Position numbers and translations under genes: made by a program
In this document: in pieces, positions 1-25,169 of the stretch
Numbering within the stretch: the first letter of the stretch is position 1
Layout: every line of letters begins with the position of its first letter
DNA from: a virus
Lineage: Duplodnaviria; Caudoviricetes
DNA: 26,019 nucleotides
Virus record (IMG/VR): IMGVR_UViG_3300017902_000614
Coordinates: 1-26,019 of that record
Strand: one strand, 5' to 3'
Notes under the pieces: model-generated
The model's database searches: none
What the model was told of the DNA's origin: nothing
The model's input: only the letters and a program-made list of their open reading frames with translations

Positions 1-224
1 GTTGGGTTTGTCACTGAAGCGACTGTTCCCGGTGCATGAACCATCAAGTCGGTAAAATAACGACCACCGACAACATCTACGTTACCTGCGTTATCACCAA
101 CAAAAAGTCTCTCTCCTTTGTTAGCCTGAGTTCCAGTACCGATTGTAAGACCAAGTTCACCGAACTGAAGACTTCCGGGAGCCGTTGTACCCGTAGATCT
201 TTTTACTCGTATAATACTAGCCAT
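1..224 (-). CDS. Probable tail fibre / fibre-like virion protein, N-terminal 74 aa (runs off the left edge; not in the ORF track)
   Basis: Manual translation from ATG at 224 gives MASIIRVKRSTGTTAPGSLQFGELGLTIGTGTQANKGERLFVGDNAGNVDVVGGRYFTDLMVHAPGTVASVTNP with no stop. The ATG is 2 nt after the TAG of the upstream gene. The I-x-V-K-R-S...P..L..GEL...LFVGD pattern is typical of phage fibre N-terminal attachment domains. Confidence 0.75.
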   Translation of the reverse strand, partial: MASIIRVKRSTGTTAPGSLQFGELGLTIGTGTQANKGERLFVGDNAGNVDVVGGRYFTDLMVHAPGTVASVTNP

Positions 225-226
225 TT

Positions 227-454
227 CTAAAAGTTACCTCCATTGATATCCAAATTTTGTGCCGATCCGGGTGTTAATACTAAAGTTGATTCAAATTTTT
301 GTGTGGTTGAGTTAAAAACTAAGACCATCCCATTTTGTGGATTGTTGATCTCTGTGTCACTAAGTCCTGCAAGAGATCCACTTACGTTTCCTGCTAATGA
401 GGATACGACCTTGGTTGCATTTTGTTGTCCTACGCGGACTCTTATGTTTGCCAT
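227..454 (-). CDS. Small hypothetical protein, probably virion-associated (75 aa)
   Basis: Start overlaps the upstream stop (TGATG at 454). Contains LAGLSDTEINNPQNGMVLVFNSTTQKF, resembling the L..L.DV.....G.VL.Y.....W fibre-associated motif, and ends in DINGGNF. Confidence 0.75.
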   Translation of the reverse strand: MANIRVRVGQQNATKVVSSLAGNVSGSLAGLSDTEINNPQNGMVLVFNSTTQKFESTLVLTPGSAQNLDINGGNF

Positions 455-795
455 CAGCGAGTGACTCCTTGCCTTACTAAAACAGATCCTTCAACAACTC
501 TCGTTACTTCACCTACACTATCGGAAACGATTACGTCATAAACATATCTTCCGGGTTTTAATGTGCCAGTGGTTATGCTAGATAAACCAACTTGTACTTG
601 TCCTTGTTCAGCATTTTGTATGGACGCTGTAAAAGTCGCTGCAATACCTGTGCTTCCCGCATGTTTTCTCATCTGAGATGAAGCTGTAAACCCACTAAGG
701 TCTAATGCATCATTAGATGATATATTTTCTAAAGAAAATGTTTGTGTGAAAGTAGCACCAGTGTTGATAATAAGATTGCTAACATATACTGCCAT
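454..795 (-). CDS. Small beta-rich virion structural/adaptor protein (113 aa), conserved type in T4-like cyanophages
   Basis: N-L-x-I-x-x-G-A-T-F...DLSG.TA.SQMRK...T..LKPGRYVYDV...RVVEG.V.V..GVT pattern. Has its own TATAAATA late promoter at 826-833. A BppU-N/LtfC-like adaptor fold is inference only. Confidence 0.8.
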   Translation of the reverse strand: MAVYVSNLIINTGATFTQTFSLENISSNDALDLSGFTASSQMRKHAGSTGIAATFTASIQNAEQGQVQVGLSSITTGTLKPGRYVYDVIVSDSVGEVTRVVEGSVLVRQGVTR

Positions 796-825
796 TTATG
801 CAATAATATAATATGATCTATAGTT

Positions 826-833
826 TATTTATA
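826..833 (-). promoter_or_regulatory. T4-type (gp55 sigma) late promoter TATAAATA
   Basis: Plus strand reads TATTTATA at 826-833, in the 796-843 intergenic gap, 30 nt upstream of the ATG at 795. Confidence 0.85.
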
Positions 834-843
834 TTTTGTTATA

Positions 844-1044
844 CTATGAATTTTTTTGAATTAATTCATTTAGAAGACCTTTGAGAGTATCTATCTCAGA
901 TTTGAGGTGCTCTATTTCAGATTTTTCAATAAGTTTTTTATCTCTCATCTTTTTATATCTCATATAACCGGATGTGTCGCAATTAATAATAGCTCCAGTT
1001 TCTTCATCACGATAAAGATGTTTATGACCTTCTACTCGTATCAT
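844..1044 (-). CDS. Small conserved hypothetical protein with C-terminal coiled coil (66 aa)
   Basis: ATGA overlap with the stop of the VrlC-like gene. N-terminus VEGHKHLYRDEETGAIIN is followed by the heptad-like EIEHLKSEIDTLKGLLNELI. This type of gene typically follows the large structural gene in cyanomyoviruses. Confidence 0.8.
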   Translation of the reverse strand: MIRVEGHKHLYRDEETGAIINCDTSGYMRYKKMRDKKLIEKSEIEHLKSEIDTLKGLLNELIQKNS

Positions 1045-4000
1045 GCTAATGCAATTGCTCGTAGATCACTTACTCTTGGTGCTTCGGCTTCATTTGTACC
1101 ACTAAACACCACTTTAATTACAAAACCAGTAAACTCTGATAGATTATCAGCAGTAAACTGATATTCTAAGAATTCACCATCAACACTTGATGGAACTTTG
1201 GCATCTGGTCTACCACTATTTTTAGAAGTAGATATTCCTACGTCACCAAATCCGTCACTATTAGTATCAAGCATATTATCAAAACCGGGGAATAAGTCAT
1301 ATGATTGTTCTCCCTCACTTATTTCAGAGTTGAATAATTTATATAAAACTCTAAAATCAGCAGACTCAGATCTCTGAGCAGTAAGAAATACTTGCAATGA
1401 AGTTGCAGGTTGTTTCAAATCAACACGTTTGGAGATATAAACTCCAGCATGAGGATCATTAGTATTGAGTTTAACTCTAGCATCTTTAGAATAATCATCA
1501 ATAGGTTTATTTAACCTATTTCTAATATAAATGATTGAACTATTCATTGTATCAATCACAGGTGATAAATTTTTATCACCAGATAACATTCTTATGCTGA
1601 TTGTATTTGATCTATTCAAGGGGAGTTCAGGTAATCTTGCAGACTCATTAACAGGTGATGCAACTAATCGTGGACTGCTAAGAACATTTATCGTATTCAA
1701 TTCAATATTTTCAAATCCTTGATCTTGGAATGATACTTCACTACCACCAGCACTCGTACCTGAGACAGTTCTTGTTTTAGCTGATATCGCTGTTTGTCCC
1801 GGAGTTATATTATTAATTATAGGATATATCTGGTTATATTGAACGTTTTGTGATGCAAAAATCTGATTTCCTCCTGCAAATGCATCCGTAAAGAAACTTA
1901 ATTGTGAGTTTCCACTTGTTCTGACTGCTGGTGCAGGCCCTGTATTGAATTTTGCACCTCTTGGAATTTCAAGATAATACTTATCAATATCACTTTCAGT
2001 TCTTAAAATAGAAGTAGATGGTAGTGTGTGTACACTATTAATACCAGTAAGTGAGAATCCATTAAACTCATATTTGTAAACTAAACTTCCGACTGCATGT
2101 TCACGAATCGCAGATCCATCAACACCTCTTTCAACTATTGTTAAAGATTCGTTACTAGTATTAATTCCATCATATTGCATGATTTCATTATTTACTTTAA
2201 CATAACCTCTTGATGTACTTATTCCTTCAAACACTTGGAAATCTAAAGTTGAATTTAGACCAGTTGCAGGAGCATTAAGATCAATTGAACTTGATGAGAG
2301 TCCAACAGCAGCATTTAAAACAACAGGTTCAGTTGTTGGTTGAATATTTGAAATTTCAACCTTATTATTACCAGAATGCATACCGTGATTGTATTGAGTT
2401 ACCTCAATTACATTACCACTAAACAATCCTCCACCAATTTCTTGATCTAAATTTCCAACATTATCAACTAATTTATTTCCAGTTAAGGCAACAAATTGAG
2501 TTCCATTAAAATGTAAAAGTGCAGTATTATCTTCAAATTTTTCACCTTGTACATCAGTTAGATATAGAGTATCGATAGATCCTATTGAATCAACGCTAAA
2601 GATTGCACCACTTCCTTGTGTAATTCCTGTAAAAGACGTATTAATTCCGATTAAATCACCAACTGTGTAACCAGTTCCATCGTTGTTATCAGTGATACTT
2701 GAAACAACACCACCAGATCCAAATGTCACATTTAATGTAGCACCAGTTCCATTTCCTGTAATTGCAAAAGTTGTTACATTATTTACAGTGCCTGAACTTG
2801 GATATTCACTACCCGGATTTCTTATCGATAATGTTGCAGTAGGGCCACCATGCCTTTCAACTGTTCCTTTTGGTGTTGTGGAAATACCTGCTTGTCCTGC
2901 AGCAATTATTTTTCCGGCTTCTATTTCTGATTGTGTAGCACCTGTATCTATCTTCACCTTAAGTTTTCGAGGTAAAGATCTTATTGCATTATTACCTAAA
3001 GTTGGAATAAGACTACTCTCATAATTCAACTCAGGATTGTAGAAGATAACTTCTGCATCCCTTGATTTGGAAAAATCTGCTTTATATAAAGTTAATTTAA
3101 GATCCTCGAATTGACTTGGAGTCCAAATAGAACCATTTTGTGATTTAAACAAACTACCACCAATATATTGTTTTGATATAACCACACTTTCAGCATCAGG
3201 TAAACTTTGAGTCTGAATTGTAGGCTCACCCATTCTACCAACCCAGGCCTCATAGTTATTTGAGGAGGGAGCTAAAAGAACTATACAATATTCTTCACCA
3301 GATGGTAAAAATATTGGAGATGGGAACGTAACTCTAGTTGCAACAGAAGCATCTTCAGATATATTTACTTGAGATGGTTCTAAAACAACTTGCGCAAAAT
3401 CTTGTAATAAAACAAGTGTAGGAATACCTAATTCCATAGTTCTAACTTGAACTGTTAGTTTTTCTTTTATATCCTTGGATCTAAAATAAAGATCAACTGC
3501 AGTAAGAAACGCTCCAGATTCATCAACTGTGAAAGATTGTGCTAATGGATCACCCCTTTGGATAATAACTTGTTCACGAATAACCTCAGTTACTTCAGTA
3601 ACATTAGTAATATTATTAGTTACGTTTGTTACGTTAGTTACCTCAGTTACTTCAGTAATATTTGTTATTTCATTCGTTATAAATTCATTCGTTATATTGA
3701 AAACTACTGGTTGAGGTGGTGGTGGTGGAAGACGGACAACCACTGTTGATTGTCTAAAGGTATCAACAACTCCGCTAGTGCGATAGTCTGTTTCAACTTC
3801 ACTAATACTCGGAGACCCTAGAAGAGGTCTTGAATTAGATGCACTTGATGTCAATTTAAATGTTTTTGTTCCATTTTCAAATCTTAATTGTGGAACTGGT
3901 GATCCCAAAGGATCTCTAAAAAAGAACGATCCGATTAAATCTCCAAGTATATCAGAAATAAGTCTTATTGGTCTAATTGTTGCTGTTGCTTGACTTTGTG

Positions 4001-7000
4001 ATCCAACCAGCTTTATTCCCTGTTGTATGAAACCAAAAAATCTTCCTTGTGCCTCTTCAACAAGAGATGCGATGTCAATATTTAAAACTGTTGATGATGA
4101 GGAATATAAACTAGGTAATGTTAACGCAGTATTATATGGATTTGTTGTAAATACTGTGGTTGGATTACTAATACTTCCTGTTTTATGATTTGGAGCACAT
4201 GTTCTTGCTACAAATATTCTATCTGCTCCATCAAATCCCTCTACAGTTTCGTTGATATCAAATGCACCAGAATCCATTGATATTTCAATTAATTTCGGAA
4301 TAATATCAATACCTGATTGACTATCAAAGAAAGCATAAAATCTTGTGTTTGGGCTAAGTCCACTTGCATCAAATGATACATTTCTTGATCTAATATGTGT
4401 ATCAGGAACACTACTTACTATGCGATCATTTGTAAATGTTTCTTCAGTATCACCTAAGACAGTTCTTGTTCCATCATTAAGAATTACGTTACGTGTCCAA
4501 GTATCTGCACTAGGACTTAAAATCATATTACCTCTAAATGAAACAATGTTGAAAGGGTTTACATTTTCAACTCTTGATGCCAAAGGCTGATCAAGAAGCA
4601 CGACTTCATCATAATCAAGAGTAATTAAATCACCTGTTTTTCTTGCACCAGAATCAAGTAATGCTAGATTGTCTGAAAAATCAACTGTAGATGGATTTAA
4701 AGATGGATCAAGTGCTAATTGAGGTTTAATTGAATAAAAATCAGTAGGAGTTACTAATGTTTGTGAACTTTCAATTACATCACACTTACAATCTGGATTC
4801 AAACGATCCAAAAGGTTTGTATTTTTGAAATCATCAACGAAGAAACCAGATTTAAATCTAGACAATCCATCAGCATCTTGAATTTGTAATGCTTTTGTAT
4901 CTAATTCAAGTAATGATAAAGATGTTAATTCTTCAAGATTTTCAATTCTATCTTCAATCTTACCAATATCTCTCATCGTGTATCGACGATTATCTACAAG
5001 ATTTATCTTTACATCTTTTACATTATAAAGGTAGGCTGGAACTTCAATCGTTCCAATTGTCATCGCTGTTTCAATATCAGATGGTACTATGGGATTTTGT
5101 GAAGAAATACCTTTTATAACTTGAATATATCCGTCTGTGTAAGCATTAACAGAATTATCACTTGAATCAATAATAACTTTATCGATTCTAGGTAAGAAAA
5201 ATTTAAAATCTAATGTAGATGCTTCATTAGGTGCAACAATTATGGTTGAGTTAGAGCCAGATGAACTAAAAACTCTTGATGAATAAGCAAAGGGTGAAGT
5301 CGATCCACTAAAGTCAGCAACTCTAGGTCTAAAATCTAAAGTATCAGTTGATCTTAATCCATTTTTAAGTATAGGAACATCTTTGAAGTTTTCAGATGGA
5401 TATGATGCGACTGTAAACACATCTCCTGTATCATTTGCAGGAACTGTAAATTTATCAAAAATAACTCTTAATCTTCTTGATGGTATATTTGAACCATCTT
5501 TTCTTACAATTCTTGAATAATCTGAAAATTCATCTCTTTGTCCATCATCAAGTTTAAAATTACTTGTGACATCTAAGAACAATCCATTAGTAATTCCTTG
5601 TAAATTTGTAGTTATATTCGACTCTTGGAAAGTAACAGATTCTCCTATAATAAACTTATTTGCGGTTAGTGTTGATATCTCAACTGTAGTGGCATTTGTT
5701 CTTTCTGTAACAACTGCAATCGCACCACTTACAGCACCTTTAATTTTTTCACCCAAAATAGAGTTAGTATCTAATGATAATCCACTGACAAAAACTAATT
5801 TATCAAGAACTGGATCGCTTAAATTAACTGATTCAAATACACCGACAATATTAAAAACATCGGGAGTGTTAAGAGATACTTCTTTATCATCGACTCTTAG
5901 TCCATAAGCTTTACTATGTGTAATTCCATTAGTACTCACACCAACTCTTGATGTTTTATTAACAACGATACTATTGCTTCGAGAAATATTTTTAGTTTTG
6001 TTATTAATTAAATCTTTTTCTAGTGTCACACTAATCACTCTTGCACTAGTTCCTGAAAGTCCACTAAATGTAATTGTTCTATTATTATTTGATAAAACGA
6101 CTTGACTTTCATCTAGTTGATCATGAATTGTAGATGCTGATGTTTTTAGAGATATACTATAACGATCACCATCATATGGTGCAAATGTTGAAGTGCTTGC
6201 AAATTCAGGAAAATCGGAACCGATAGTTAATTGAATAGTTCCACCACTTACTGATTTTTGAGCTTGTGCTTTAACAAATAATTTTGATTGTGCTAATGAC
6301 GCATCAGACACATTCTTTTTAGGAAGTTCTGCGTACAATCCAACATTATTTTGAAATATTTGTGGACGGCCGATACGAACACCTGTAAAATTTCCATCCG
6401 CAACACTTGCTACACAAACTCCATTAACATCAGTAACAGCAGAGACTGTAAACTGTTTAAGAGTTCCGGTTGGAGCTGTGCTTACTCTCATAAATCGAGG
6501 ATCATCTTCAACCTCATTGCTTATAATAATAATATCATTAGCCTTGATGGATCTAAATGTTTTTCCTGCACATTTAACTACACCTGAAGCGATATTAATT
6601 GAATCTGAAGGACTGAGTTCTTTGATTGGAACAGGATTTAACACCAAATCTCCTGAAAAATCAACACCGGTGCCAAAAACTGCATCACACTCCTGATGAA
6701 CTGACATGACATCTTCTAATCCAAATTTATCAACAGATACGATTGATCTTACCTCTCCATTAGCTCCAATTGATGTTGAACCATTTATTTTTATTTGCTC
6801 ACCGTCAATAAATGTTCCTGATACTTGTTCAAGAAGTAAAGTACCACTACCAGCTCCTGCAGAGACAGTAAATCCTGTCGCACCACTACTTAATCCTTCA
6901 ATAAAACTACCAACTGGTGCTGTAGAACTACTGAAAGATCCACTCGCTATAATTTGGGTAAAAATTTGAATATCATATACGTATAAATCAAATTTAGTTG

Positions 7001-8375: not shown

Positions 8376-8378
8376 TTT

Positions 8379-9935
8379 TTAAAATTCCAGAATAATTTTT
8401 ATGTCTTCCTTTTGTCTCAAGTTTCTTGAAATGAGAGCCCGATTGTCAATGTACAATACATCGCCCGACCCTTTATTTATCTCAGGAGAAGCAAGACCAC
8501 TTGTAAAAGAAACTCCTAAAGCAACGTTATTATTATTAACATCTGTAGTTATACCAGCACTAAAAGTGGTTTCAACAGATCCACTACCTCCGGAAAAGGA
8601 AATTTGACTGGTCGATGATGTAAATTCATATTGCTGCGATCCACTACTTACATTTGCATAATCAGTTTGATCAACTTTATTTCCAAAATACAACGATCTA
8701 TCTTGAATGTATTTCAAAACATTTGTGTCGCTGTCAAAAGAACTGATATATCCTAAAGCAGTTTGACCAACACCAACATTTTGTTGAAGCAAACCACCAA
8801 CCGTTGGAGTCCCTGTTATAGTATCTAGTTTAATTGATTTCAAACCCGAATACGTGCTGCCTGTGTAAACTGATGTTGTACCAAATGATGTTGGATTTTT
8901 TATTAGTGATACTTGTGCAAATTTGGCATCAATTGGGAAATCTTTTGTTGAATCATCAAATCTTGCATACACAAGAACCCGATCAGCACCTAACTCTTTA
9001 TATAAGTCAAATCCATGTCCTTTTGATGGAGGTATGATGGGTATTAATTTTGCAGGTGTGTTTCCTGCTACGGCAGCACTATTAATTGTACCTAAATCAA
9101 CGACCCCATATGTATAACCTTTACCGCCATTTGATATGGTTGCTTTTGTAATTTTTGTCCCAGAAACCTCAATAACTACTTTACCACCTGTGCCATCACC
9201 TAAAATATTAAATTCACCACCTGTTCCTGTGTAATTAAGTCCCTGATCAGCAATATATACTGTTTTTATTTGATTATTGTTTATATCTGAATCACCATTT
9301 TCTCGAACTGCCTGTATTTGCGCATCAGTTGTAGTTGGCCAATCATTTGGCAGAGAGATAAAATCAGTTGAATCAAACTTTATAATATCACTTGGTTTTA
9401 CGGTGAACAAATACTTCCATATGTATCCATCTTGACTCTCACCTGCTTTAGAGGGTTCTAAATCAGTAAATGTGGGTTCATCCTCAGACGCATTACCTGT
9501 GGTGTTTATTCCTGATGAACCATTTTCAATACAAATATAAACATTAAAATTACTGTTTATAACATAATAATTAGCATCATATAATCGAGTTGCATTTGAA
9601 TTAGGCGCAGTATTTGTAGTACTGTAGTCCTGACGATACATATCGTATTTTACACCTTTTGTCCAATTTATTCTACGAACTAATCTTCTTACATTAGTAT
9701 CTGTAACTCTCTTACCAAACTGTGTTGTATCTCCTACATGATCTATTTCTGAAAAACTATCTACTGGATTAGGGGTAGCAGTGTTCCAATTGTTTGCTCT
9801 TCCAAAACCAACTGAAGCCGGTTGAGGATTTGGTAAACCTAAAGAGATAAAATAAGAATTTGTAGACGAAGAGACCCCTGCAACAAAATTACTTGCATTT
9901 AATATTCTAAACTGGTCTGTTACAATTGCTGGCAT
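8379..9935 (-). CDS. gp8: Baseplate wedge subunit gp8 (518 aa; true start MPAIVTDQFR)
   Basis: W..G..YDMYR.DY...LYDANYYVINS.FNVY.CI.NG...EPT..D......DGYIWKYLFT..P.DIIKFDSTDFI, IIPPSKGHG.D...ELGA and terminal R...QKEDIKIILEF. Start moved from 10073 to ATG 9935, which removes the overlap with gp7 and leaves a late promoter just upstream. Confidence 0.9.
   Translation of the reverse strand: MPAIVTDQFRILNASNFVAGVSSSTNSYFISLGLPNPQPASVGFGRANNWNTATPNPVDSFSEIDHVGDTTQFGKRVTDTNVRRLVRRINWTKGVKYDMYRQDYSTTNTAPNSNATRLYDANYYVINSNFNVYICIENGSSGINTTGNASEDEPTFTDLEPSKAGESQDGYIWKYLFTVKPSDIIKFDSTDFISLPNDWPTTTDAQIQAVRENGDSDINNNQIKTVYIADQGLNYTGTGGEFNILGDGTGGKVVIEVSGTKITKATISNGGKGYTYGVVDLGTINSAAVAGNTPAKLIPIIPPSKGHGFDLYKELGADRVLVYARFDDSTKDFPIDAKFAQVSLIKNPTSFGTTSVYTGSTYSGLKSIKLDTITGTPTVGGLLQQNVGVGQTALGYISSFDSDTNVLKYIQDRSLYFGNKVDQTDYANVSSGSQQYEFTSSTSQISFSGGSGSVETTFSAGITTDVNNNNVALGVSFTSGLASPEINKGSGDVLYIDNRALISRNLRQKEDIKIILEF
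8474..8481 (-). promoter_or_regulatory. Putative late promoter GATAAATA embedded in the gp8 3' end, serving the VrlC-like gene
   Basis: Encoded by GAG ATA AAT AAA (E-I-N-K), about 100 nt upstream of the ATG at 8375. 7/8 match to TATAAATA. Confidence 0.5.
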
Positions 9936-9954
9936 TATTATATTGTTTTTTCTA

Positions 9955-9962
9955 TATTTATA
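9955..9962 (-). promoter_or_regulatory. T4-type late promoter TATAAATA for gp8
   Basis: Plus strand TATTTATA at 9955-9962, between the gp7 stop (9973) and the gp8 ATG (9935). Confidence 0.85.
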
Positions 9963-9972
9963 CAGGAAATCG

Positions 9973-15900: not shown

Positions 15901-18900
15901 TGCAGGGTCTGTATTATTGTACTCCACAACATTAAAGAATTTAAATCCATTGTCTGCAGAATTAAACCCATCTCCTGTTGATCCTTTTGTTATATTTTCA
16001 ACAAATATTTGCTCACCAACTGAAAATTGTGGAGTAGCAAACCCGTTAATCGGTGTTTTAAGAGTGCATGTAACAATACCACTGGTGCTACTTTCAATAT
16101 TTGTTACACGATATCCATTTGAATTATTAATTGTTCTTAAAATTTGAGGTTTTGAAGTTAATCCTCTTGGTGATTCTAATATATCAACATTAGATAAAGA
16201 ATTTGCCGATAAATTTACTTGTAAAACACCTTGATCATTAGTCAATTTACCCGTATCAGGGTCAACAATTACAAGTTCAGGTGCAGAGGTATAATTTACA
16301 CCTCCATCAGATACAGTTATATCTACTATAGAATCTGAATTTATAAGGGTGACTGTCGGTGATAATCTGGCCTCTGGACGAAGTGTTCTATCAGAATGAT
16401 AATCAAAACCGGGATCTGTTATCCGAACTTCATTAATTTTATTAATATTTGATGACAAACATAATATGTTTTCTCCACCTCCATTTACAGATGTTACACT
16501 CGAAACTCCGGGAATATTTTTATATCCAAATCCACCAGATGTTAGATTTATTTTACTGATTCCACCAGAGGTATTTGTGGATGATGTATCATAAGTTATA
16601 GTTGAAGATGCTCCAACATTATAAGATCCCTGTTCAGGAACATCATTTAAAGATATGTTAAATCCACCAGTTGTAACTCCAAAGGCTACATAATTACCAT
16701 TATATTCACTATCTTTGTAAATAATTTCTGATGCATTTTTTACATCAGGATCTGATGTGCTTATAAATCCAGTTTTTTCAAGAGTATAAAATAATTTTTC
16801 TGGATTTGATTTATTGAATTTTAAAGTTATAGTTGAAGTGGTTCCAACACCGACTGTTCCAACACCAATAACACCAAAATCAGTTGATGATCCAATAGAA
16901 ACAAATTCATTTTTAAATTCTGAATCAAAGTAAAATTTTAAATTATATCCGGATAAAGATGGGTCTGAAACATAGAAAAGTAAATTATCATCTCTTATCA
17001 CTTCTAATCTTGGATTTACTAATGATAATTCCTGATTTCCACCACTATTTGCTGTAATTGAAACTACTTTTGGAGGTTCATTAATAACATCATATCTGGT
17101 TTCAGCCAATTTAAAGTTACTATCATCTACTTTGTAAACAAAATACGATCTTTGAGATGTTAAACCTGTAGCAGGATTTCCATTATAGAATAGTTTTTGT
17201 CCAGTTTTAAATCCATGATTAGCAATATTAATTGTATCTGTGTTGACAGAGGAGTTTGTAAATAATATTGGATTTATTAATAGTTTGTCATTCTGGGCAC
17301 TATATTTTACCACAACTGATGTTGCACCTGCACCAACACCTTTTGTTTGTGTAGATCTTAATTTTAAATTAATATTATCATTGTTTTGAAGACCATGAAG
17401 AGTTGATCCAGCAGATACAGTGGCAACACCAACGTTTACTGTAATCCTTTCAACCTTTCCCTTAACTTGTTCATAATTTGATTCAATTGAGTATTCAAAA
17501 TTATCAAATGACGCTGCATTTCCAGTTTTAAAGAACACTGGAGTTGTATTTGCTGTTAAAGCAATGCCCACAACATCTTCTGAAAATTTTCTTATATAAA
17601 CAGTTTGACTATTTCCTGAAGATGGTAAATTAAAATCACCACCAACTTGGAATCTATCACCTAAACCAATTGTAAATTGTGTTGCAGCATTTGATGGTTT
17701 TCTTAAAATTACTTCTTGATTATCTTTGAATGGATGATTTGGTAAAAATATTCCTTTGGCTGGAATTGAAATTGTTTCAGATAGTTCACCAAGAGTAAAT
17801 GGTTTACCAATTGTTACTGTCCTACCAACAGTATTTGCAACACCAACAGATTCTCTTGGATTAAAGTAAATAATATCATTCTTTTTAGATATAAATTCAC
17901 CAATATCTTGAGAGGCTAAATCAATTGTTTGTGGAATTGTTTGAACTAATCCACCAAGAATATGAGATGTAGATGTATCCCCATATCCCACTAGTCCTCT
18001 ATTAACTCTTAAGATACTTCTATCACGGAATACATTAAGAACTCTTAATTTTTCTGTTCCAATTCCTATACTACTTCCTGCCGATACTGAATTAGGTACT
18101 GTAGCCACATAAATGTCTGTGACGATACCTGCAGTGTTTATTCCAGATAGTGCTTTGTATAATACAGTGCTTTCAGAACTAACACCAATTTTATGAGACC
18201 CTGTTAACTTAGGAATACTTGTTGTTAACCCTGATATTACAACTACATCGCTTGTGTTTAAATTATGAGTTGTTGAAATAAATCCAGATACAGTTCCATT
18301 TCCTCCGTTAACAAATACAACATCATTGTAAGTAGTTACTCCTACTTTAACATTATCTAATTCTTTTCCTTCCACTCTTGAAACTGCAGCAGATGCTCCA
18401 CCACCATCAGTATTTGAATTATCAAAGTTTAAACTGTCACCAACTTTATAATTATCACCTGATGACACAATTTGGAAATCACTTACGTTACCAGAAGTAA
18501 CTGATTCTATTATTGATGTTTGTTGATTAATCTCATACGATTCTATAACAAAATTATAGTCAGCATTATCATCATCAAGTTTATATGGAAGTGAATTCCT
18601 AGTCAATTCAGACTTATTGAAATCAAAATTTCCTTGTGTTAAAGTAAAATTATCAGATACAGGATTAGAACGATAAGTGTCACCTATAAAATATGGAAAT
18701 CTTGGTTCTGCATTAGTGGATGAGATTCCTGCAAAATATGCGTAAGTTCCATTTGGAAAATCTGGTGTCTTACAGAATCTACCATTGTTTTCGTCCAAGT
18801 CTCCTGAATTTTTAAACACATGATCCTCTACAAAAAATCCAGACGCAAAAGTTGATAAACTTGGTCTATTTTCAATTAGTGTGGGATCCAAATCGTATCC

Positions 18901-21900
18901 AGAATTAAGAACTCTTGACAATGAGTTATTATCATCTGCCACTGAGTATCCGTATGGCCCGTAAATTGGGTTGCCATCATATGCCCAACCTATAATTGGA
19001 GAGTGTGTTTGTGGTGAAGAGGTGAGATCATCAAATGCTGTTTGAATTTTACCGGAATATCCTAATACTGAATACTGAAGATTAGTATCTGACTCTCTTA
19101 AAAGTATTTCATCACCAAAACGTGTTAAGTTATTAACAGTCAAACTTCTTACAGAACTATCAATAATAAATCCCGATCCATTAGGTGTAACTTTCACGGG
19201 AGGTGATGATGAATATCCAATGCCCGCATTTATGACTTTTACTTCTGTGATTTTACCACCATTAACGACTGCTCTTAATTTACCGCCTATGCCAGTTCCT
19301 ATTCCAACTAAGTCTAAATCTGGTGCTGATGTATAATTTTTGCCTCCAAATCTAACATCACACCCAATTATTTTACCATCTAAAACAACTACCTTTAACT
19401 CAGCACCTGTTCCATTAAGTATTTTTATATTAGGTTTCTTCTCAAAATTTAATATATTTGATCCATAATTAGTTCCACTTTCATAAAGATAAGCATCTAC
19501 TAAAGGCCCACGAATTTTAGGAGTTAAAACTAGTGATTCTGTTCTGCCAGCAGATACTGGAGAATAAACAGCGTTTACACTTACAACAATTGGTTCAAAG
19601 AAAAATTCATGATTACTTAAACTTGAAACTTCTGATATTCTAACAAAGTTACTTCTTTGAAAATTGGATGAGGGATCTGTCGCACCTATACCAACGTCAA
19701 TCAATCTAAATTTGTTATTATCTAATTTTAGTACTCTATACCTTGTGGTTACACCTAAACCTATTGGAGCATGATTTGCATCACCACTTGATGGAGCATA
19801 CTGCACCAAATCACCTGTAATAAAACCATGATTTTTAAAATTGATAGAATTATCAACTGTTGTTATTCCAACTGCTTTAACTATTAGTTTTCTATTTGTA
19901 TAATTTGATCCTGAGTCAAGAACTTTTATTGATTTTAAATGATTTTTTAAATTAAGAAGAGTAAATTTATGATTTCCTGTTTGATTTTCTACAGTGTATC
20001 CTATAGTATTAATACCTGATAAGTAATCTGTCTCTTTTTCAAATAATTTTATTGTTGTAGAATCAATAACTTCTGGATAATAAGTTGATCCATTTATCAA
20101 AGTTTTATTCTGAATTGTATTCGATCCTGCAAAGGTTCCTATTCCTATAGATGCGTGTCCATTATTATTGTATATTAAAGGTTCACCACTTTGTAAGTTA
20201 TGAGCATAGTAAAAATCTATTACGTCATTAATATGATCAACTCCTCCACGTATGTTTTTTAATCTACCATCAAATGGTAATTCTCTTTGTCTTTTAGTGA
20301 CGATAGGTTTTAGTATAGCACCTGATCCATTTCCTCCGGAGATACTAACTGATAATACTTTTTCAATATCAAAATTTTGTTGATCAACCAACATCTCCTT
20401 TAAATCACCTTTAATAACTGGCTGAACTAGGGCAGTTATTCCTGATCCTACATTCGGAACGGAGATCGTAGCAGGATTAATTACATCAAAATCTTTTCCT
20501 TGATTTAATATTTTAAACTCAGATAATGGGCCAAAAAATATCTTATCTAATGATTTATAGTTCGCTATTTCGACACCATTTTTTAAAATTGCAGTGGTTC
20601 CTACTTTTGTTTCGACTGAAGTTCCAGATTTTATGTTTACATCTGCTGGAAACTTTCTTAAAACCTTTTGAACTCCAATCTGTTCGTTTTTATGTCTAAG
20701 TAAAACAAATTTATGGGATCCTGTTGTGCCAATCCCAACATTAGTAAATTCAATATATGGTGGAGCAGCTTGATTTACGTTTGTGACAGTGATGAAAGAT
20801 CTTGATGGATATAATCTAAGTATTTTGTTTTGACCATTTTGGGCAGTTAGAACTTCAGCATAATAAACACCACCTGTTGTATCTAATCCGACGATAGGTT
20901 CATTTTCTGGAACATATGCGATAGCGTCACCAGTTATAAATGGTATTTCCGAATCAAATTGTAATTTAGAATATAGACCTGTAACCGGATTTTTTTCTAA
21001 AAGTTGTTCAGTTCCAATACCAAGTCCATCTACTTGAGGGTCATCTAAAGTTGCTTTAACTACAGTTTTTTCAATTTTGTACGAAGGCATTGAAGAAGAG
21101 GCCACATAATAATCTTGATCACGATCATTATAAGTATTTTGAACATTCGCAGTAATCGAATCATTACCAAATTCTAAATCTACATCTGTGGCACCAAATG
21201 CTTTATCAAGTTCTCTTTGTATATCATATTCTGTATTACCATCATTTAATACTGTTGTATCTAAATCTATATCTTGTAAATTAACTGTAACTCCAACACC
21301 TATGGAAATTGGTGTGAGTTCACCTCTTCTGAAAATAGATACTTTATCTCCATTTTTTAGTTGAGATTTATCAATATTTGATTTTTGAACAACTGCGGAT
21401 GTTGTAGTATTGATTGCAACATTAGATGGGATGTCTACTTGAATACGACTTGCTGTATTGTAAATCCAAGAATTGAAGAAAACTGTTTTTCGTGTCCTAT
21501 CACTTAGAGAGGGTGGATTAGGTATTTCTTCACCAAGATTTTTGACAGTTATTTTTTCACCCTCAAGAGTTACACTTGATCCTGAACTGGGTAATAATTC
21601 AAAATCAGACAAAACACCGGTTATTCTTAACTCAACTCTTTTTGTTAAATCTCCCTCTTCATATCCAAAAATAAATTCATCACTCCTTAAATCGTCTGTT
21701 GATCTTATTGAATTACCTATACCAGCGCAATTTAAAAATTGATTTATTGTTTTGTCTGAATATGTTATAGTATTAATACCATTTACACCATTTGTAATTA
21801 CTGTACCAGTTGTCCCAAATCCAACTGTAGAATCTACAGTGAGTATTGTAGATCCTATCGGTGCATCTTCTATGACTCTTGTTTTTCCCGGAATAGTAAA

Positions 21901-22830
21901 AGTTCCTTGTATCGCAGATCTTTCATCATATCCAACGAATAAATTTAATTTATAATATGTTGTTATTCCTAAATTACCTGATCTACTAAAAATCTCCACC
22001 TCAGATACAGATCCTGAAGTATTAAGATCAGTTGATTTGGTTATTGTTTGGCCTACTAACTTATTAGGATCGCCAGAAATCTGTTGAGCAACGACTACCT
22101 CTCTACGAAGATATTCGGATGATGATGGTTTAAGAAGTAAATTTTCTAAATCAATAATTTTAGGTGTAATCCCATATAAAACATTAAATAAAATACGAAA
22201 TGACTCCTCTGTTCCTTTAGATTTGTATAAAGATTTAGACTCTTTAATAAAATTACTTATATCTACATTAGGATTTAATACAGTGTCTTCAAGTCCGGGA
22301 GTAATATAAGACTTTGTTTTTTTGTAAAACTCTTTAAGAAATAAAACACTTAAGTTTTCAACTCTTGAATTTATTGCATGGGTTTCAACATCACTAGTCG
22401 AAAAAATAAGTTCTCCTTGATTATCAGGATCAGTATATGATGTTATTCCACTAAAACCCCTTACAAGACCAGTGAATGAATTGGTCGTTATTCCTGTATA
22501 TGTTATTATTTCATCATCTATCTTTAAAAGACCATATTCACTTGGAAAACCTTTTGTCGAAGATACTGATATAGATTCTTGATCTAAATCTGTAATTGGT
22601 GATGTTAGAGTTGTGACACCAACAATCACTTCAGGTGTTAAATTATCAAGTTTAATATATTGATCTAAATTATCAGTTAAATCTGTAACACCTCCACGAT
22701 GTTCTTGAGAAATATAATATTGTTTTAAAAAGTCAACGGCCAATGGACTCTCTGATCTAATAAACTCAGGGAGTTGACTCTCTATTATTTGCTGAACTTG
22801 TATACGCTTGTCTATTCCAGTTCCGATCAT
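9973..22830 (-). CDS. gp7: Giant baseplate wedge initiator gp7-like protein (4285 aa), multi-module
   Basis: Lies between gp6 and gp8. N-terminus IIESQLPEFI...FLKQYY.SQE...NLDQY.KLD, plus FIK....LYKSKGTEESFRILFNVLYG and DNDYYQNLSY.IQS......PVN.LLHTSGLKNF wedge motifs. Many Gly/Thr-rich beta repeats. ATGA overlap with the gp6 stop. Confidence 0.85.
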   Translation of the reverse strand: MIGTGIDKRIQVQQIIESQLPEFIRSESPLAVDFLKQYYISQEHRGGVTDLTDNLDQYIKLDNLTPEVIVGVTTLTSPITDLDQESISVSSTKGFPSEYGLLKIDDEIITYTGITTNSFTGLVRGFSGITSYTDPDNQGELIFSTSDVETHAINSRVENLSVLFLKEFYKKTKSYITPGLEDTVLNPNVDISNFIKESKSLYKSKGTEESFRILFNVLYGITPKIIDLENLLLKPSSSEYLRREVVVAQQISGDPNKLVGQTITKSTDLNTSGSVSEVEIFSRSGNLGITTYYKLNLFVGYDERSAIQGTFTIPGKTRVIEDAPIGSTILTVDSTVGFGTTGTVITNGVNGINTITYSDKTINQFLNCAGIGNSIRSTDDLRSDEFIFGYEEGDLTKRVELRITGVLSDFELLPSSGSSVTLEGEKITVKNLGEEIPNPPSLSDRTRKTVFFNSWIYNTASRIQVDIPSNVAINTTTSAVVQKSNIDKSQLKNGDKVSIFRRGELTPISIGVGVTVNLQDIDLDTTVLNDGNTEYDIQRELDKAFGATDVDLEFGNDSITANVQNTYNDRDQDYYVASSSMPSYKIEKTVVKATLDDPQVDGLGIGTEQLLEKNPVTGLYSKLQFDSEIPFITGDAIAYVPENEPIVGLDTTGGVYYAEVLTAQNGQNKILRLYPSRSFITVTNVNQAAPPYIEFTNVGIGTTGSHKFVLLRHKNEQIGVQKVLRKFPADVNIKSGTSVETKVGTTAILKNGVEIANYKSLDKIFFGPLSEFKILNQGKDFDVINPATISVPNVGSGITALVQPVIKGDLKEMLVDQQNFDIEKVLSVSISGGNGSGAILKPIVTKRQRELPFDGRLKNIRGGVDHINDVIDFYYAHNLQSGEPLIYNNNGHASIGIGTFAGSNTIQNKTLINGSTYYPEVIDSTTIKLFEKETDYLSGINTIGYTVENQTGNHKFTLLNLKNHLKSIKVLDSGSNYTNRKLIVKAVGITTVDNSINFKNHGFITGDLVQYAPSSGDANHAPIGLGVTTRYRVLKLDNNKFRLIDVGIGATDPSSNFQRSNFVRISEVSSLSNHEFFFEPIVVSVNAVYSPVSAGRTESLVLTPKIRGPLVDAYLYESGTNYGSNILNFEKKPNIKILNGTGAELKVVVLDGKIIGCDVRFGGKNYTSAPDLDLVGIGTGIGGKLRAVVNGGKITEVKVINAGIGYSSSPPVKVTPNGSGFIIDSSVRSLTVNNLTRFGDEILLRESDTNLQYSVLGYSGKIQTAFDDLTSSPQTHSPIIGWAYDGNPIYGPYGYSVADDNNSLSRVLNSGYDLDPTLIENRPSLSTFASGFFVEDHVFKNSGDLDENNGRFCKTPDFPNGTYAYFAGISSTNAEPRFPYFIGDTYRSNPVSDNFTLTQGNFDFNKSELTRNSLPYKLDDDNADYNFVIESYEINQQTSIIESVTSGNVSDFQIVSSGDNYKVGDSLNFDNSNTDGGGASAAVSRVEGKELDNVKVGVTTYNDVVFVNGGNGTVSGFISTTHNLNTSDVVVISGLTTSIPKLTGSHKIGVSSESTVLYKALSGINTAGIVTDIYVATVPNSVSAGSSIGIGTEKLRVLNVFRDRSILRVNRGLVGYGDTSTSHILGGLVQTIPQTIDLASQDIGEFISKKNDIIYFNPRESVGVANTVGRTVTIGKPFTLGELSETISIPAKGIFLPNHPFKDNQEVILRKPSNAATQFTIGLGDRFQVGGDFNLPSSGNSQTVYIRKFSEDVVGIALTANTTPVFFKTGNAASFDNFEYSIESNYEQVKGKVERITVNVGVATVSAGSTLHGLQNNDNINLKLRSTQTKGVGAGATSVVVKYSAQNDKLLINPILFTNSSVNTDTINIANHGFKTGQKLFYNGNPATGLTSQRSYFVYKVDDSNFKLAETRYDVINEPPKVVSITANSGGNQELSLVNPRLEVIRDDNLLFYVSDPSLSGYNLKFYFDSEFKNEFVSIGSSTDFGVIGVGTVGVGTTSTITLKFNKSNPEKLFYTLEKTGFISTSDPDVKNASEIIYKDSEYNGNYVAFGVTTGGFNISLNDVPEQGSYNVGASSTITYDTSSTNTSGGISKINLTSGGFGYKNIPGVSSVTSVNGGGENILCLSSNINKINEVRITDPGFDYHSDRTLRPEARLSPTVTLINSDSIVDITVSDGGVNYTSAPELVIVDPDTGKLTNDQGVLQVNLSANSLSNVDILESPRGLTSKPQILRTINNSNGYRVTNIESSTSGIVTCTLKTPINGFATPQFSVGEQIFVENITKGSTGDGFNSADNGFKFFNVVEYNNTDPAIVKFELPNTATNPGIADSTQKFATIIKFSEYPKFTTTQKSSEFRTGEKLAVRVNNNFLSTGLIVIDNRPDEFIKIEGRYEVKVGDTIRGENSGTVATINSIVNNKGRFKIDYSLKQNKGWKDEVGRLSEDFMVLSDNDYYQNLSYTIQSPKTFDEIVDPVNRLLHTSGLKNFADAGISSTASAGIGITNQTVVSADVITEQRVDAINNFDLAKDIDTIDAGSKSKFIQLKNTKLSNFIQCNTNRVLKIDDISSEFSDSEANLSGNISIPFGETFARFLIQSRNIASGEIQVDDVVIFNDKTDTFTFEKNSLVSTASTIVDVEGRTVNGSKNLVISPFNPNDDDIDIKVYKNSFNDQNLRSGTQSIGFVNLVGISTVVSVGTTAEPIATGSTTSVDAFYATIEVENIISGEKNHVDIYATHDGTDSFYSEYYADTSSQNNFSSNFIGTFRSRIHNNILSLDFDNSVGIASTVKINAKVIGFNTTGGNDVFRFKDNAQPDGAERTINLRSGITTRTNTANFISLDKNNFSAVKSVVRIKSATASAVHQVLAIHDGTDTHTIHYPFISIGSTSGIGTFSSNLTASNFVVKFHPDSGTGSHTVQHFSEEIYKDIDILNDPPDLGYGRVNETLRVFQYNAVNGTRSNKKSFVLKNNGTPIYEKGFDPEDTLKLNRTTGVFTIPNHFFSENEQLTYTPKSTFAGVGATSLQKSNGSNLATTVFVNKIDNNNFRLRESSGGTTVTFNNVGAGNSHRLTMAKRLEKTVLVIDGIIQSPMAFSPVTTTLVNNGGSISTTTSDICVNSTTDINLEDHVKFNNEFMKVTSVGFGTTSTGPVTGIGTFNILGVERGSLGTNITTHNDGTVGRVNSGSFNIVDSTVFFADAPKGTNNIDRDSSGLETPRSAFQGRTYLRKTYTTNRIFDDLSTQFTGVGATFRMKSNGTNATGITTGSSLVLINGIFQKPTTNNNLGNNYDFKGTSTQDIVFTGVSSALSGDQVIVQGDVNQNQLPRGGKIVSLGSTGGLGVAPLVGAAVTGILNQFGGITAVGIGSTIYNQSVSPSRPPSGLTFGSGYRPVGGTVAIGITDLAYVHRFVSAGVGSIRTNASGNNIFAATQRTATDASYISHTGLLTLTIANHGLSVGNFVGIDTGSLVFTCSRDDFASNHAYPRALSKTTGLPDPIAGIATVITAVTTNTITAFIGFGGGAGTGASLTGNIGVGGTLDINVSAAGTNYVNPRFEFPEPTYSNMEVVGVSRNGVPGTTTGSNLLVTLNVGASSTVGIGSTLFSIESFEIAREGHSFKRGDKFKPVGLVTARGATLEDFILEVTEIYNDKFSSWEFGEFDYIDPIDNLQDGARTRFPLRVNGELLSFDVGSNTDSQLIVMSNLLAIYVNGVLQEPGEAYVFDGGTTFEFTTAPETNDNISIFFYKGTAAEDVTEINAVETIKEGDVVQINANNDTSTLTNANTRLLIDLEQGKRTVSGITTTDTFETEIYTGVGINDSATNKPLTWIKQKIDKVVNGVVVSKARDSIEPLIFPTARIIGDIGTGSTDRIYVDDADFFEYEKDEDSQVTSIEVSGLVVNNNNPVSAALTAVVSNTGTITSIDVVDGGSGYVGATTSVHISQPPVPMKVSPIATGIGSTAVLTANITNGVITTVTVNSGGAGYSQSIIPKVIASAHKPIKEEFVNIETIKGFSGIVTGISTVMIGGTVGLEFGLQAPLGQAFTDLIPTTPIFISETSVGHGVTSLNESGADEDVVGIGRTFVDNVYMVKEIGSLSNNAFIRVNVHSGINTTGIDLAKYGLSFSIAVTANGSNNYILNGPHRDEFSTQTALSSAANGTVYVEDGDTVSFVNNMGAHPFRISRTEGGAALGVSDGVTNNGASNGTVVFNTTGVGHTTFHYYCTSHPNAMKGLIKVKKIQKGKFSWGRLSTSSGNFVRNNPVSIGVTGNTVIAGEGLGISTFPTIQRRGFGIRDSGAIKRSHTP
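10180..10521 (-). other. Cupredoxin/plastocyanin-like module within gp7
   Basis: VYVEDGDTVSFVNNMGAHPF...GTVVF.......FHYYCTSHPNAMKGLIKV, with His (10354-10356), Cys (10219-10221), His (10210-10212) and Met (10198-10200) in type-1 copper order. Confidence 0.6.
18680..19005 (-). other. YHYH-family-like domain within gp7
   Basis: HSPIIGWAYDGNPIYGPYG...SGY...FVED.....GDLDENNGRFCKTPDFPNGTYAYF...FPYFIG matches the conserved core of the YHYH family, with YAYF in place of YHYH. Confidence 0.7.
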
Positions 22831-24728
22831 GTTCTTGTTAGTTCTCCGTTAGAGTAGCTCGAAGTTACTTTGAAACCAACACCAGATATTTGTTCGCCTG
22901 ATGTAATTGTATCCTTAACCATATTTATTTGACTACTGGGAATGTTAAAATCTAAGTAAAGATCTTGTAAACCAATTACATCATTTGATTCTGGAAATGC
23001 CTGAACTTCAACAATATTATTTGGTTTATCAGTTGAAATTATGTTTATAGTGGATAAATTAATTTCACCATGAACATAATCAACTGTTCCAGCAGATTTT
23101 ACTACAACAATTGTTTCACCACTTGCATTTTTTCTTACAACTGATATAGTTCCAGTTAATTTATCTTCATTAGGAATATCTGTGAAAAATACGGTTTCTG
23201 CAGTTCCTAATATTTTAAATCCAGTGCTCTTAATATTTAACCCTTCAGGTCTAACATTAAATTGATTTCCAAAACATAACTCATATTGGGCAAACTGGTT
23301 AACTAGAGCATTTAAATTACGTCTTATCTTAATTCTTGTTATATTTGAGGTGATTGCTTTATCAATATTATCAACTACGTTTAACACCTTACTGTATTTA
23401 AATCTACCTCCAAATTTATTTACATCACCAGATTTAGAGTATGTTGTTAAAGCCGACACTATTTTTGATTTTAAATCATTAACTGTTGCAATTTTAGTAG
23501 AATCATAGTATATGAATGATTCAACCTCAACATAAAGAACTTGTAAATCAACAATTTTTTGATTAATACCAGTCAATGAGTAACTTTTTAATTTTGTCAA
23601 AATTTGTGTTTTATCAAAATCAGATACAAATTCACCATTTTTTGGTTTTATCGTAATTAATACAGTTCCAAACTGAGGTGGATCAACTTCTTCACCACCC
23701 ACAACAGACACACTTTCTGTATTTGGATATATTGTTTGCACTATCGACTCATAATCCCTTGCTGTAACCGCCCTATACTGCGATGAATATAGTCTAGGTG
23801 CAAAATACTTAATTGAGTCAATACTTTCAATATCACCGCCATTAGAAGCAGGAGAGACTGTGTTTATTACTGGAACTGTGCTAGGAACAATGACTTGACC
23901 ATTATCACCAAGAAAACTACCAGCAAAGTTGAAGAACTCAGGGCCATTCCCCTCAGAACCCGATGTAACAACATATTGAACTGTAATTACTGCACCATTT
24001 TCAGGTTTACGTCCAAAAATACCATCACCAAATAAAAGTTCATATCTCTCATCCTGTATCTCTTGTATAAGATAAGTATCTGATATTGAACTAATTCCAA
24101 CTATATTATCAATCATCTTATATTGTTTACCCAGAACACCCGGAGTGCCCACATAAGCAACGATAGATGATGTATCAATGTTTCCGTTATCCAATATAAA
24201 TCGCTGCTCTAATGACCCGTCAACGACGAACTGAGATGTTAAGAATGTACCCTCTAACACCTCAATAGGTGAACTCACTGATCCAAAAGATGCAGCACCA
24301 ACTCCTGCATTTACAGTTGTATTCGCCACAATGCTTTCTGAGATTGAAAACACTATATCTGAATCATTCTGTCTTCCTACACACACTAGGCCTGGTTGTA
24401 GAGTCATTGTAGGACTTGTTGTGTTAGCAGTGACTGTAAAAGATATAGATGCCCTTGCTGCTGTCTTTGAACGAGGCACATAACCAATATTTCTTGCAAG
24501 AGATACTACATTTTCCCTTAGAGTTGCAGAATCAAGAAAAGACTCATTTACTACAAGGTTTGAGTTGAATGCAGAGATATACGTATTATAAGCCAGTGCG
24601 TCAATTAAGACTGAAAAGTTAGATCCTTCAAAATCAAAGTCAGTAAAGTTTGAATTTGCTCTTAGATAGTCTTTTATCTGTGTTTTAATCTGATCAAAGT
24701 CAAGATTAGTAAATTTAGTAACTGGCAT
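22827..24728 (-). CDS. gp6: Baseplate wedge subunit gp6 (633 aa)
   Basis: LDFDQIK..IK.YLR....FTDFDFEGSNFSVLID.LAYNT...ESFLDSATLRENVVSLAR.IGY.PRS, FGDGIFG, ESIDSIK..APR.Y..Q.RAVTARDY and G.VDY..GEI are all hallmark T4 gp6 motifs. Confidence 0.95.
   Translation of the reverse strand: MPVTKFTNLDFDQIKTQIKDYLRANSNFTDFDFEGSNFSVLIDALAYNTYISAFNSNLVVNESFLDSATLRENVVSLARNIGYVPRSKTAARASISFTVTANTTSPTMTLQPGLVCVGRQNDSDIVFSISESIVANTTVNAGVGAASFGSVSSPIEVLEGTFLTSQFVVDGSLEQRFILDNGNIDTSSIVAYVGTPGVLGKQYKMIDNIVGISSISDTYLIQEIQDERYELLFGDGIFGRKPENGAVITVQYVVTSGSEGNGPEFFNFAGSFLGDNGQVIVPSTVPVINTVSPASNGGDIESIDSIKYFAPRLYSSQYRAVTARDYESIVQTIYPNTESVSVVGGEEVDPPQFGTVLITIKPKNGEFVSDFDKTQILTKLKSYSLTGINQKIVDLQVLYVEVESFIYYDSTKIATVNDLKSKIVSALTTYSKSGDVNKFGGRFKYSKVLNVVDNIDKAITSNITRIKIRRNLNALVNQFAQYELCFGNQFNVRPEGLNIKSTGFKILGTAETVFFTDIPNEDKLTGTISVVRKNASGETIVVVKSAGTVDYVHGEINLSTINIISTDKPNNIVEVQAFPESNDVIGLQDLYLDFNIPSSQINMVKDTITSGEQISGVGFKVTSSYSNGELTRT
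22922..22929 (-). promoter_or_regulatory. Putative late promoter AATAAATA embedded in the gp6 3' end, serving gp7
   Basis: Encoded by CAA ATA AAT ATG (Q-I-N-M), about 92 nt upstream of the gp7 ATG at 22830. 7/8 match to TATAAATA. Confidence 0.5.
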
Positions 24729-25141
24729 TATCTTGTTGCTTTTAATAAGAATGAAAATTCTTGTGTTGGAAATTGTTGTCCAATAATATCGAAGATTATG
24801 AATACTTCATATTCATTTTGATCTGGTCTAGGTTCAACATTTACATCTAAATTAGTAACTCGAAGTTCATAATTCTCTATTGTGTTTCTAATTTGTCCTT
24901 CAATAATTGATGCGGTACCAAAATCAACAAATCCCGGAACATTATTAAATAGAAGATTTCTTACTTCAGATCCAATCGTGGAATTAAAAAATCTTTCACT
25001 AGGAATTGTTTGCACAAGATTTCGCACAGATCTTTTAATCGCATCTGCATTTTTAAGCACACCAATATCTCCGGTCACTGGATGTCTTTTAAAAGACAGA
25101 CTGATATCCTTAAACGCTCTTGATATTCGGGTTATCGCCAT
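24728..25141 (-). CDS. gp25: Baseplate wedge subunit gp25 (GPW/gp25 family, sheath initiator; 137 aa)
   Basis: FKDISLSFKRHPVTGDI...NADAIKRSVRNLVQT...ERFFNSTIGS....LLF...I...IENYE.RV. Stop overlaps the gp6 start (TAATG). Confidence 0.93.
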   Translation of the reverse strand: MAITRISRAFKDISLSFKRHPVTGDIGVLKNADAIKRSVRNLVQTIPSERFFNSTIGSEVRNLLFNNVPGFVDFGTASIIEGQIRNTIENYELRVTNLDVNVEPRPDQNEYEVFIIFDIIGQQFPTQEFSFLLKATR

Positions 25142-25160
25142 TAAACAATGGATTTTTATC

Positions 25161-25168
25161 TATTTATA
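25161..25168 (-). promoter_or_regulatory. T4-type late promoter TATAAATA for the gp25-gp6 unit
   Basis: Plus strand TATTTATA at 25161-25168, 19 nt upstream of the gp25 ATG. A second CTAAATA variant lies at 25175-25181. Confidence 0.85.
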
Positions 25169-25169
25169 C

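Follow-up and report, generated by a model that had tools for sequence, protein, structure and literature searches.

Purging of CCWGG and GGWCC sites, with exemption of copies overlapping RGCY, in a clade of uncultured marine T4-like cyanophages

The virus record IMGVR_UViG_3300017902_000614 consists of a single contig of 26,019 bp, the whole of which was analysed and is called the window below. It has a GC content of 33.6%, its coding sequences lie on the minus strand, and from its sequence it is the baseplate module of an uncultured marine T4-like cyanophage. Here we describe the depletion of the palindromes CCWGG and GGWCC (W, A or T) in this module and its relatives, and the context of the few copies that are kept. 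At the left end of the window a tail-fibre-like gene fragment (3..224, phrog_15769) extends past the contig end. It is followed by three virion genes at 227..1044 (75 aa; 113 aa, phrog_3304; 66 aa, phrog_473), a VrlC-like virion protein of 2444 aa (1041..8375, phrog_358) and a baseplate wedge subunit that is gp8-like by position (8379..10073, phrog_438), whose true start probably lies downstream of the start of the longest open reading frame. The remaining baseplate genes encode a gp7-like wedge protein of 4285 aa (9973..22830, phrog_2885), the wedge protein gp6 (22827..24728), which served as the clade-defining marker, and the subunit gp25 (24728..25141). A gene resembling S-adenosylmethionine (SAM) decarboxylase (phrog_3125) and a 5'-open phrog_3704 gene occupy 25170..26019. 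All these genes are encoded on the minus strand.

The gp6 protein shares 60% identity with that of S-SKS1 and 58.5% with that of P-SSM2. We found the features of a Kyanoviridae-type T4-like cyanophage: a baseplate module and core genes nearest to cyanomyoviruses and, within the clade described below, cyanobacterial auxiliary genes. Many marine metagenome runs and one sponge metagenome hold near-identical DNA. Contigs from four public marine runs cover positions 6000-25200 with few letters different, therefore the window is not an assembly artefact. The clade members G017 and G005 carry a ferredoxin-dependent bilin reductase (PF05996), which makes a picocyanobacterial host likely; the low GC content and the nearest named relatives suggest that it may be Prochlorococcus. 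A scan of a genome collection with gp6 for the host matched four non-cyanobacterial metagenome-assembled genomes (MAGs), probably mis-binned phage contigs.

A sequence-only reading of the window had proposed that Pro-Gly codon pairs are recoded in a way that eliminates CCWGG. Its 22 Pro-Gly dipeptides were all recovered in the 11 genes (two in the fibre fragment, one each in the 75-aa and 113-aa genes, eight in the VrlC-like gene, seven in gp7, two in gp6 and one in gp25). In front of Gly, Pro is encoded by CCC 11 times, CCG nine times, CCA twice and CCT never, whereas the other 300 Pro codons are 161 CCA, 112 CCT, 17 CCC and 10 CCG. The Fisher test that had been suggested for the third base is decisive (CCC/CCG in 20/22 before Gly vs 27/300 elsewhere; odds ratio 101, p = 5.8e-17), and the poly-Pro tract cited as an example of ordinary usage, four CCA followed by CCT, lies at 3714-3728 on the minus strand. 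The 20 pairs written as CCC-GGN or CCG-GGN (minus strand, within 28..24937) appear on the plus strand as CCSGG (S, C or G) at the four positions named before, 28, 175, 267 and 551, and at 1285, 1798, 2812, 7075, 7306, 7630, 8179, 8287, 12143, 15860, 16409, 16508, 21887, 22295, 24139 and 24933. We used 1000 amino-acid-preserving codon shuffles as the null model for the window. CCWGG occurs 3 times compared to 21.5 ± 2.3 expected, a value as low as this being reached in 0 of 1000 shuffles, and CCSGG occurs 20 times compared to 4.6 ± 2.1. GGWCC, which the earlier reading had missed, is absent altogether (0 vs 9.4 ± 1.7 expected). Gly-Pro pairs use GGC or GGG in 8/8 cases vs 65/750 for other Gly codons (p = 5e-9); these pairs (minus strand, within 1936..23945) give rise to GGSCC at 1936, 2842, 10463, 13415, 18956, 19505, 20528 and 23941. 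Two further palindromes are partly depleted, GTAC (35 vs 94.7 expected) and AGCT (16 vs 57.3). CAGCTG is missing from the window (0 vs 7.7).

The scoring applied to the window was extended to 164 gp6 loci, drawn from collections of viruses, metagenomes and genomes and partly representing the same contigs. In a gp6 tree of 139 sequences (at least 500 aa, duplicates removed, P-SSM2 added) the purge is confined to one clade (support 0.966), and the sister L022/L098 keeps both sites. In the 42 clade loci taken together, which are partly redundant, CCWGG was found 43 times vs 311 expected and GGWCC 0 times vs 145, with zero copies in 42/42 loci. The 122 loci outside the clade, again pooled and partly redundant, contain CCWGG and GGWCC at the expected frequency (954 vs 939 and 652 vs 657); here CCGG is depleted (137 vs 760) and 91 of the 122 have none. 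Two long records of the clade, which is represented by genome fragments only (the longest, G017, has 79.6 kb and is 41% complete), show the same pattern: 5 CCWGG vs 47.5 expected and 0 GGWCC vs 20.1 in G001, 4 vs 57 and 0 vs 35 in G017. In a panel of 27 sequence sets from named and long genomes, CCWGG was purged in the three clade sets only. A degenerate gp6 pattern did not prove clade-specific as a marker, and L392/G012 was rejected as a clade member because it carries the CCGG-free signature.

Since a Pro-Gly pair must contain either CCWGG or CCSGG, purging CCWGG and purging CCGG are mutually exclusive and the clade has switched from one to the other: by escaping CCWGG it had to take back CCGG, a site that its relatives purge. 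One of these relatives, P-SSM2, has no CCGG, GCGC or CGCG at all in 242 kb. At variable homologous sites of the clade the third position changes between C and G only in 10/13 Pro-Gly and 7/7 Gly-Pro pairs, in contrast to 2/274 other Pro codons. These exchanges of C and G bypass A and T, which indicates that selection is still acting. At the sequence level the pattern is that of restriction-site avoidance: sites are depleted beyond composition, they are lost synonymously while the protein is conserved, and the loss is maintained. Several other lineages (L038, L039, L547-L550, L589-L595, L620-L665) purge GGWCC and CCGG and keep CCWGG, therefore the loss of GGWCC arose more than once. ACGT is additionally purged in the G017 subclade (L460-L463), L174 and L525-L541 (2 vs 152 in G017, 0 vs 26.9 in L174); the window contains 37 copies vs 46.7 expected.

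All three CCWGG remaining in the window (3243, 11726 and 24391) overlap RGCY (R, purine; Y, pyrimidine). The first (CCAGGCC at 3243..3249, plus strand), in the VrlC-like gene, is not part of a Pro-Gly pair and overlaps GGCC. The second is found in the Glu-Pro-Gly codons GAG CCA GGT of gp7 (11726..11732, minus strand), where the first C lies within AGCC. The third, in the Pro-Gly-Leu codons CCA GGC CTA of gp6 (24389..24395, minus strand), again overlaps GGCC; among 25 clade members in the alignment, 16 have the same codons and nine have CCS-GGN. We then sorted the 271 distinct Pro-Gly contexts of the clade by their flanks. CCW is used in 18/27 contexts flanked by RG, in 0/11 flanked by YG and in 1/233 unflanked ones, so that 18 of the 19 surviving distinct CCW-GG contexts are RG-flanked. 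These contexts include homologous sites, therefore p-values calculated from them overstate independence. As controls, the G flank was found in 28/270 CCWGG of ten outgroup loci and in 18/271 CCSGG of the clade. In each exempt context the C of RGCY coincides with the first C of CCWGG, and since AGCC as well as GGCC is exempt, a methylase acting on GGCC only would not be sufficient. Hiraoka et al. (2022, PMC8919816) used single-molecule real-time (SMRT) sequencing to detect N4-methylcytosine (m4C) on the genomes of marine myovirus-like viruses. The motifs marked there, RGCY, CCWGG and GGWCC, which are combined differently from genome to genome, are also the three that set purged apart from exempt sites here. 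Their Data S3 names homologues of GGCC-type N4-C methylases in the six RGCY-marked genomes examined. We infer from the exemption that the RGCY mark blocks a nuclease cutting CCWGG.

A related rule was found in a second lineage. The complete genome of the cultured phage S-SSM7 (L688-L697, L493-L494) contains 206 CCWGG, of which 196 are immediately preceded by a G; the remaining 10 overlap GGWCC. For comparison, 36/316 CCWGG are G-flanked in the 242 kb of P-SSM2. Other sites of S-SSM7 are G-flanked as well (CTGCAG 27/27, CCATGG 18/21), and CCGG, CCSGG and GGSCC are all zero. Among 80 related loci 58 follow the flank rule (373/382 sites, median GC 36.6%) and 22 do not (64/337 sites, median GC 39.8%); the loci were divided by the flank fraction itself. 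No match to PF00145, PF01555 or PF02086 was obtained in S-SSM7 or in the 99% complete G024. For S-SSM7, a cultured phage with no recognisable methylase, a GC mark is predicted. Two further hexamers are rare across the window, G001, G017, P-SSM2 and S-SSM7: none of the five contains TTCGAA (6-21 expected), and AAGCTT occurs 0-1 times.

P-SSM2 encodes two PF01555 methylases and one D12 methylase. The first, an N4/N6-type enzyme, appears from gene order to resemble the M.Cdi630III-type matches of Data S3 (PMC8919816). Its 80 best loci keep CCWGG (436 CCW vs 4 CCS at Pro-Gly) and none of them has the clade signature. In the clade no match was found to PF02086 in 15 fragments, to PF00145 in G001-G004 and G017, which are fragments, or to PF01555 in the fragments searched, which cover well under a genome. 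A simple order of events, in which the methylase is lost and a purge follows, was rejected: of 11 complete genomes with no match to the P-SSM2 methylase, 10 do not conform to it, therefore exposure to a cutter would have to differ among phages. Phage-borne restriction is possible, since one viral MAG lists an RsaI-like nuclease together with a GTAC methylase (PMC8919816 Data S3). In P-SSM2 (54-55.8 kb; L256:582-2397) a 293-aa gene overlaps the start of the second methylase, an N6/N4 enzyme containing a helix-turn-helix. The 293-aa protein matched no Pfam family; the arrangement and a His...Asn stretch suggest that the two may form a phage-borne restriction-modification pair.

Between gp44 and gp62, where G010 has a D12 methylase, G017 carries a DruA-like GNAT gene (PF14236) followed by a SAM lyase (PF23780) and split glycine decarboxylase P genes (L460:8010-9661). 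The D12 gene was matched in 12 of 26 records and the DruA-like gene in nine of the other 14; none of the 12 D12 records is among the 25 of 31 DruA-like matches listed. When 80 DruA-like loci were compared, the SAM lyase lay directly behind the DruA-like gene in 32/32 loci with the clade signature and in 0/48 others, an association that represents a single clade. With the SAM decarboxylase-like gene of the window (25170-25520), which adjoins gp25, the clade has another enzyme that consumes SAM. Neither the DruA-like gene nor the SAM lyase accounts for the purge on its own. The DruA-like gene was rejected as a sufficient cause, as 48/80 of its loci are not purged and 22 of the 80 related loci above lack the flank rule. 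The SAM lyase is neither sufficient nor necessary: homologues occur in P-TIM68, AG-345-L05 and P-SSM2, all of which keep CCWGG, and L762 has the clade signature without a SAM lyase. An AlphaFold2 model of the G017 DruA-like protein (pLDDT 74.8) shows a GNAT fold (VIA-align top Z 8.6), its top 50 structural matches are all GNAT-type by title, and DUF4338 has been called GNAT in the literature (PMC10853773). The phage Mu protein Mom (8bv8) ranks 29th (Z 6.8, rmsd 4.4, 170 aligned residues, among the longest alignments), tied with many GNATs. In the model the clade protein thus appears to share its fold with Mom, and its gene sits among clamp-loader genes; unlike Mom, which modifies adenine (PMC12801897), the rule described here points to a G-C pair. 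The DruA-like GNAT at this locus is a candidate only for the maker of the RGCY mark.

Taken together, we consider it probable that the purge is conditional, with cleavable CCWGG and GGWCC selected against and RGCY-marked copies exempt. Unmarked copies would be cut by restriction-type nucleases of the host or of a competing phage. The clade, presumably devoid of a dedicated CCWGG/GGWCC methylase, would remove GGWCC and nearly all CCWGG through synonymous codon choice. Where RGCY overlaps, the mark would be placed on the first C of CCWGG and block the cut, and such sites would be kept. A CCWGG cutter, a GGWCC cutter and a mark on the first C within RGCY are thereby predicted. This agrees with the sequence-only reading insofar as it attributed selection against CCWGG to a system not encoded in the window. 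Sensing or cleavage of methylated DNA, which it also considered, is a poor fit: the sites that would bear a mark are the very ones that survive.

Several observations weigh against this explanation. The rule has exceptions in L025 (TTT CCA GGT AAT) and at position 77990 of G017, and 2/6 CCWGG in the DruA-like loci with the clade signature are not RG-flanked. The clade, like almost all relatives, is also depleted of RGCY. The modified position of RGCY would follow from the GGCC-type position-3 top matches in Data S3 (PMC8919816), a study whose authors assigned self-defence only a minor part in these methylations. The absence of methylases from the clade rests on fragments that stop short of the region of the P-SSM2 N4/N6 methylase; extending them upstream towards it yielded no further sequence, and extension downstream added essentially a single clade locus. 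Of the 11 complete genomes without a match to that methylase, 10 have about as many CCWGG as expected and follow no flank rule, including the low-GC S-SCSM1 (70 vs 69), and DruA-like genes are widespread without any rule. G016 (L467) has a gp6 stretch that is 96% clade-like and, upstream of it, two unflanked CCWGG and one GGWCC; these upstream 10 kb have a non-clade signature (37% GC, GATC 15 vs 30), and the record is either recombinant or a chimeric assembly. Finally, the model leaves unexplained that G001 (L169-L171) has only 2 CCGG outside CCSGG vs 27.9 expected.

This last finding keeps a different explanation alive, in which the threats are cutters of CCNGG and GGNCC and methylase specificity has switched: the clade enzyme would protect CCSGG, that of the relatives CCWGG, and GGSCC would be shielded through RGCY. 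In G001, NCC codons precede Gly in 2/306 cases (p = 8e-9) and 42 CCSGG are kept nevertheless. CCGG outside CCSGG is likewise reduced to 0-1 sites in G005, L543, L545 and L568, where CCSGG is abundant. GGCC is contained in every GGSCC, and the motifs marked in the SMRT data include CCNGG and GGHCC (PMC8919816). On the other hand, CCGG outside CCSGG is near or somewhat below expectation in the window (13 vs 17.6) and in G017 (28 vs 41.4), the clade fragments searched lack a PF01555 match, and S-SSM7 has neither CCSGG nor GGSCC. We regard such a switch as unlikely.

Quite unlikely, in our view, is that the clade avoids methylation itself. A host Dcm-type enzyme would mark CCWGG and GGWCC, and the marked DNA would be cut by a modification-dependent nuclease of host or phage, or would mutate; overlap with RGCY would block the host methylase. 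A flank rule would also be expected here, provided that a mark already in place blocks the host enzyme. Homologues of CCWGG m5C methylases occur in marine prokaryote MAGs (PMC8919816 Data S3), a SAM lyase immediately follows the DruA-like gene in all 32 loci with the clade signature, and the SAM lyase of phage T3 prevents methylation of the phage genome (PMC8406200). Against this, related myoviruses bear m4C at the same motifs (PMC8919816), and the link between SAM lyase and signature comes from one clade, with L762 and the CCWGG-keeping phages that encode homologues departing from it. A footprint of deamination is missing as well: CTWGG/CCWAG (50 vs 48.4) and TCWGG/CCWGA (118 vs 120.6) are not in excess in the window, nor is CTWGG/CCWAG in G001 (95 vs 93) or G017 (142 vs 137), and decay of Dcm-type sites by deamination was therefore rejected.

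A codon-pair or translational preference, or a mutational bias unrelated to DNA recognition, is without specific support and very improbable: both strands lose the palindromes, whether the dipeptide is Pro-Gly or Gly-Pro, relatives of the same composition make the opposite choice (814 CCW vs 13 CCS), and the exemption follows the palindromic DNA context and not the amino acids. Selection for CCGG as a methylation target, the alternative raised by the sequence-only reading, is rejected, since the excess of CCGG in the window (34 vs 21.7 expected) consists entirely of CCSGG at Pro-Gly, the 13-14 sites elsewhere are not above expectation (13 vs 17.6 ± 4.0 in the shuffle comparison), NCC before Gly is not raised (10/196 vs 107/1638 elsewhere, p = 0.54) and G001 avoids CCGG elsewhere; CCGG is a by-product and not selected.

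A bolder reading would join these elements, and we put it forward tentatively, as rather doubtful. A SAM-independent (R)GC mark would be made by the DruA-like GNAT, which takes the place of the D12 methylase next to the clamp loader; the mark would stand in for m4C at RGCY and shield sites whose first C follows a G. This would have allowed the acquisition of a SAM lyase and the loss of SAM-dependent methylases, at the cost of purging CCWGG and GGWCC. If true, the choice of Pro-Gly codons would read out the modification chemistry of the phage, with S-SSM7 as a test case.

Avoidance of restriction sites is well known; the variant described here is avoidance that probably depends on an overlapping mark. 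Enzymes of the EcoRII/MvaI type belong to restriction-modification systems acting on CCWGG. AvaII recognises GGWCC (PMC4390886) and Dcm CCWGG (PMC10644984). The targets of EcoRII/MvaI and AvaII match the purged sites; a corresponding nuclease was located in neither host nor phage, and blocking at the outer C is suggested by the flank rule. As in virulent dsDNA phages (Rusinov et al. 2018, PMC6286503), short palindromes are removed. Unlike in those systems, each site is lost or kept according to whether a certain motif overlaps it, and sister lineages settled on opposite codons. In coliphage myoviruses 2.4% of sites were avoided in the presence of a DNA-modifying enzyme as against 55.8% otherwise (PMC6286503). 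The main text of that study makes no mention of cyano-, Prochlorococcus, Synechococcus or CCWGG, and its supplements may hold values for single genomes. In the open-access literature we found no paper on purging of CCWGG/GGWCC or on rescue by flanking bases in cyanomyoviruses; supplements and closed journals may hold one.

Hiraoka et al. measured the marks themselves, with viral methylases unassigned in the rows of Data S3 covered, while we describe a purge at the sequence level and found no methylase in the clade fragments. That study left the function of m4C on marine myovirus DNA open and doubted a role in defence (PMC8919816). That exactly those motifs are purged, unless a second mark would overlap them, indicates at the sequence level that CCWGG and GGWCC without a mark carry a cost in the ocean, and the flank rule predicts which base is marked in which phage.

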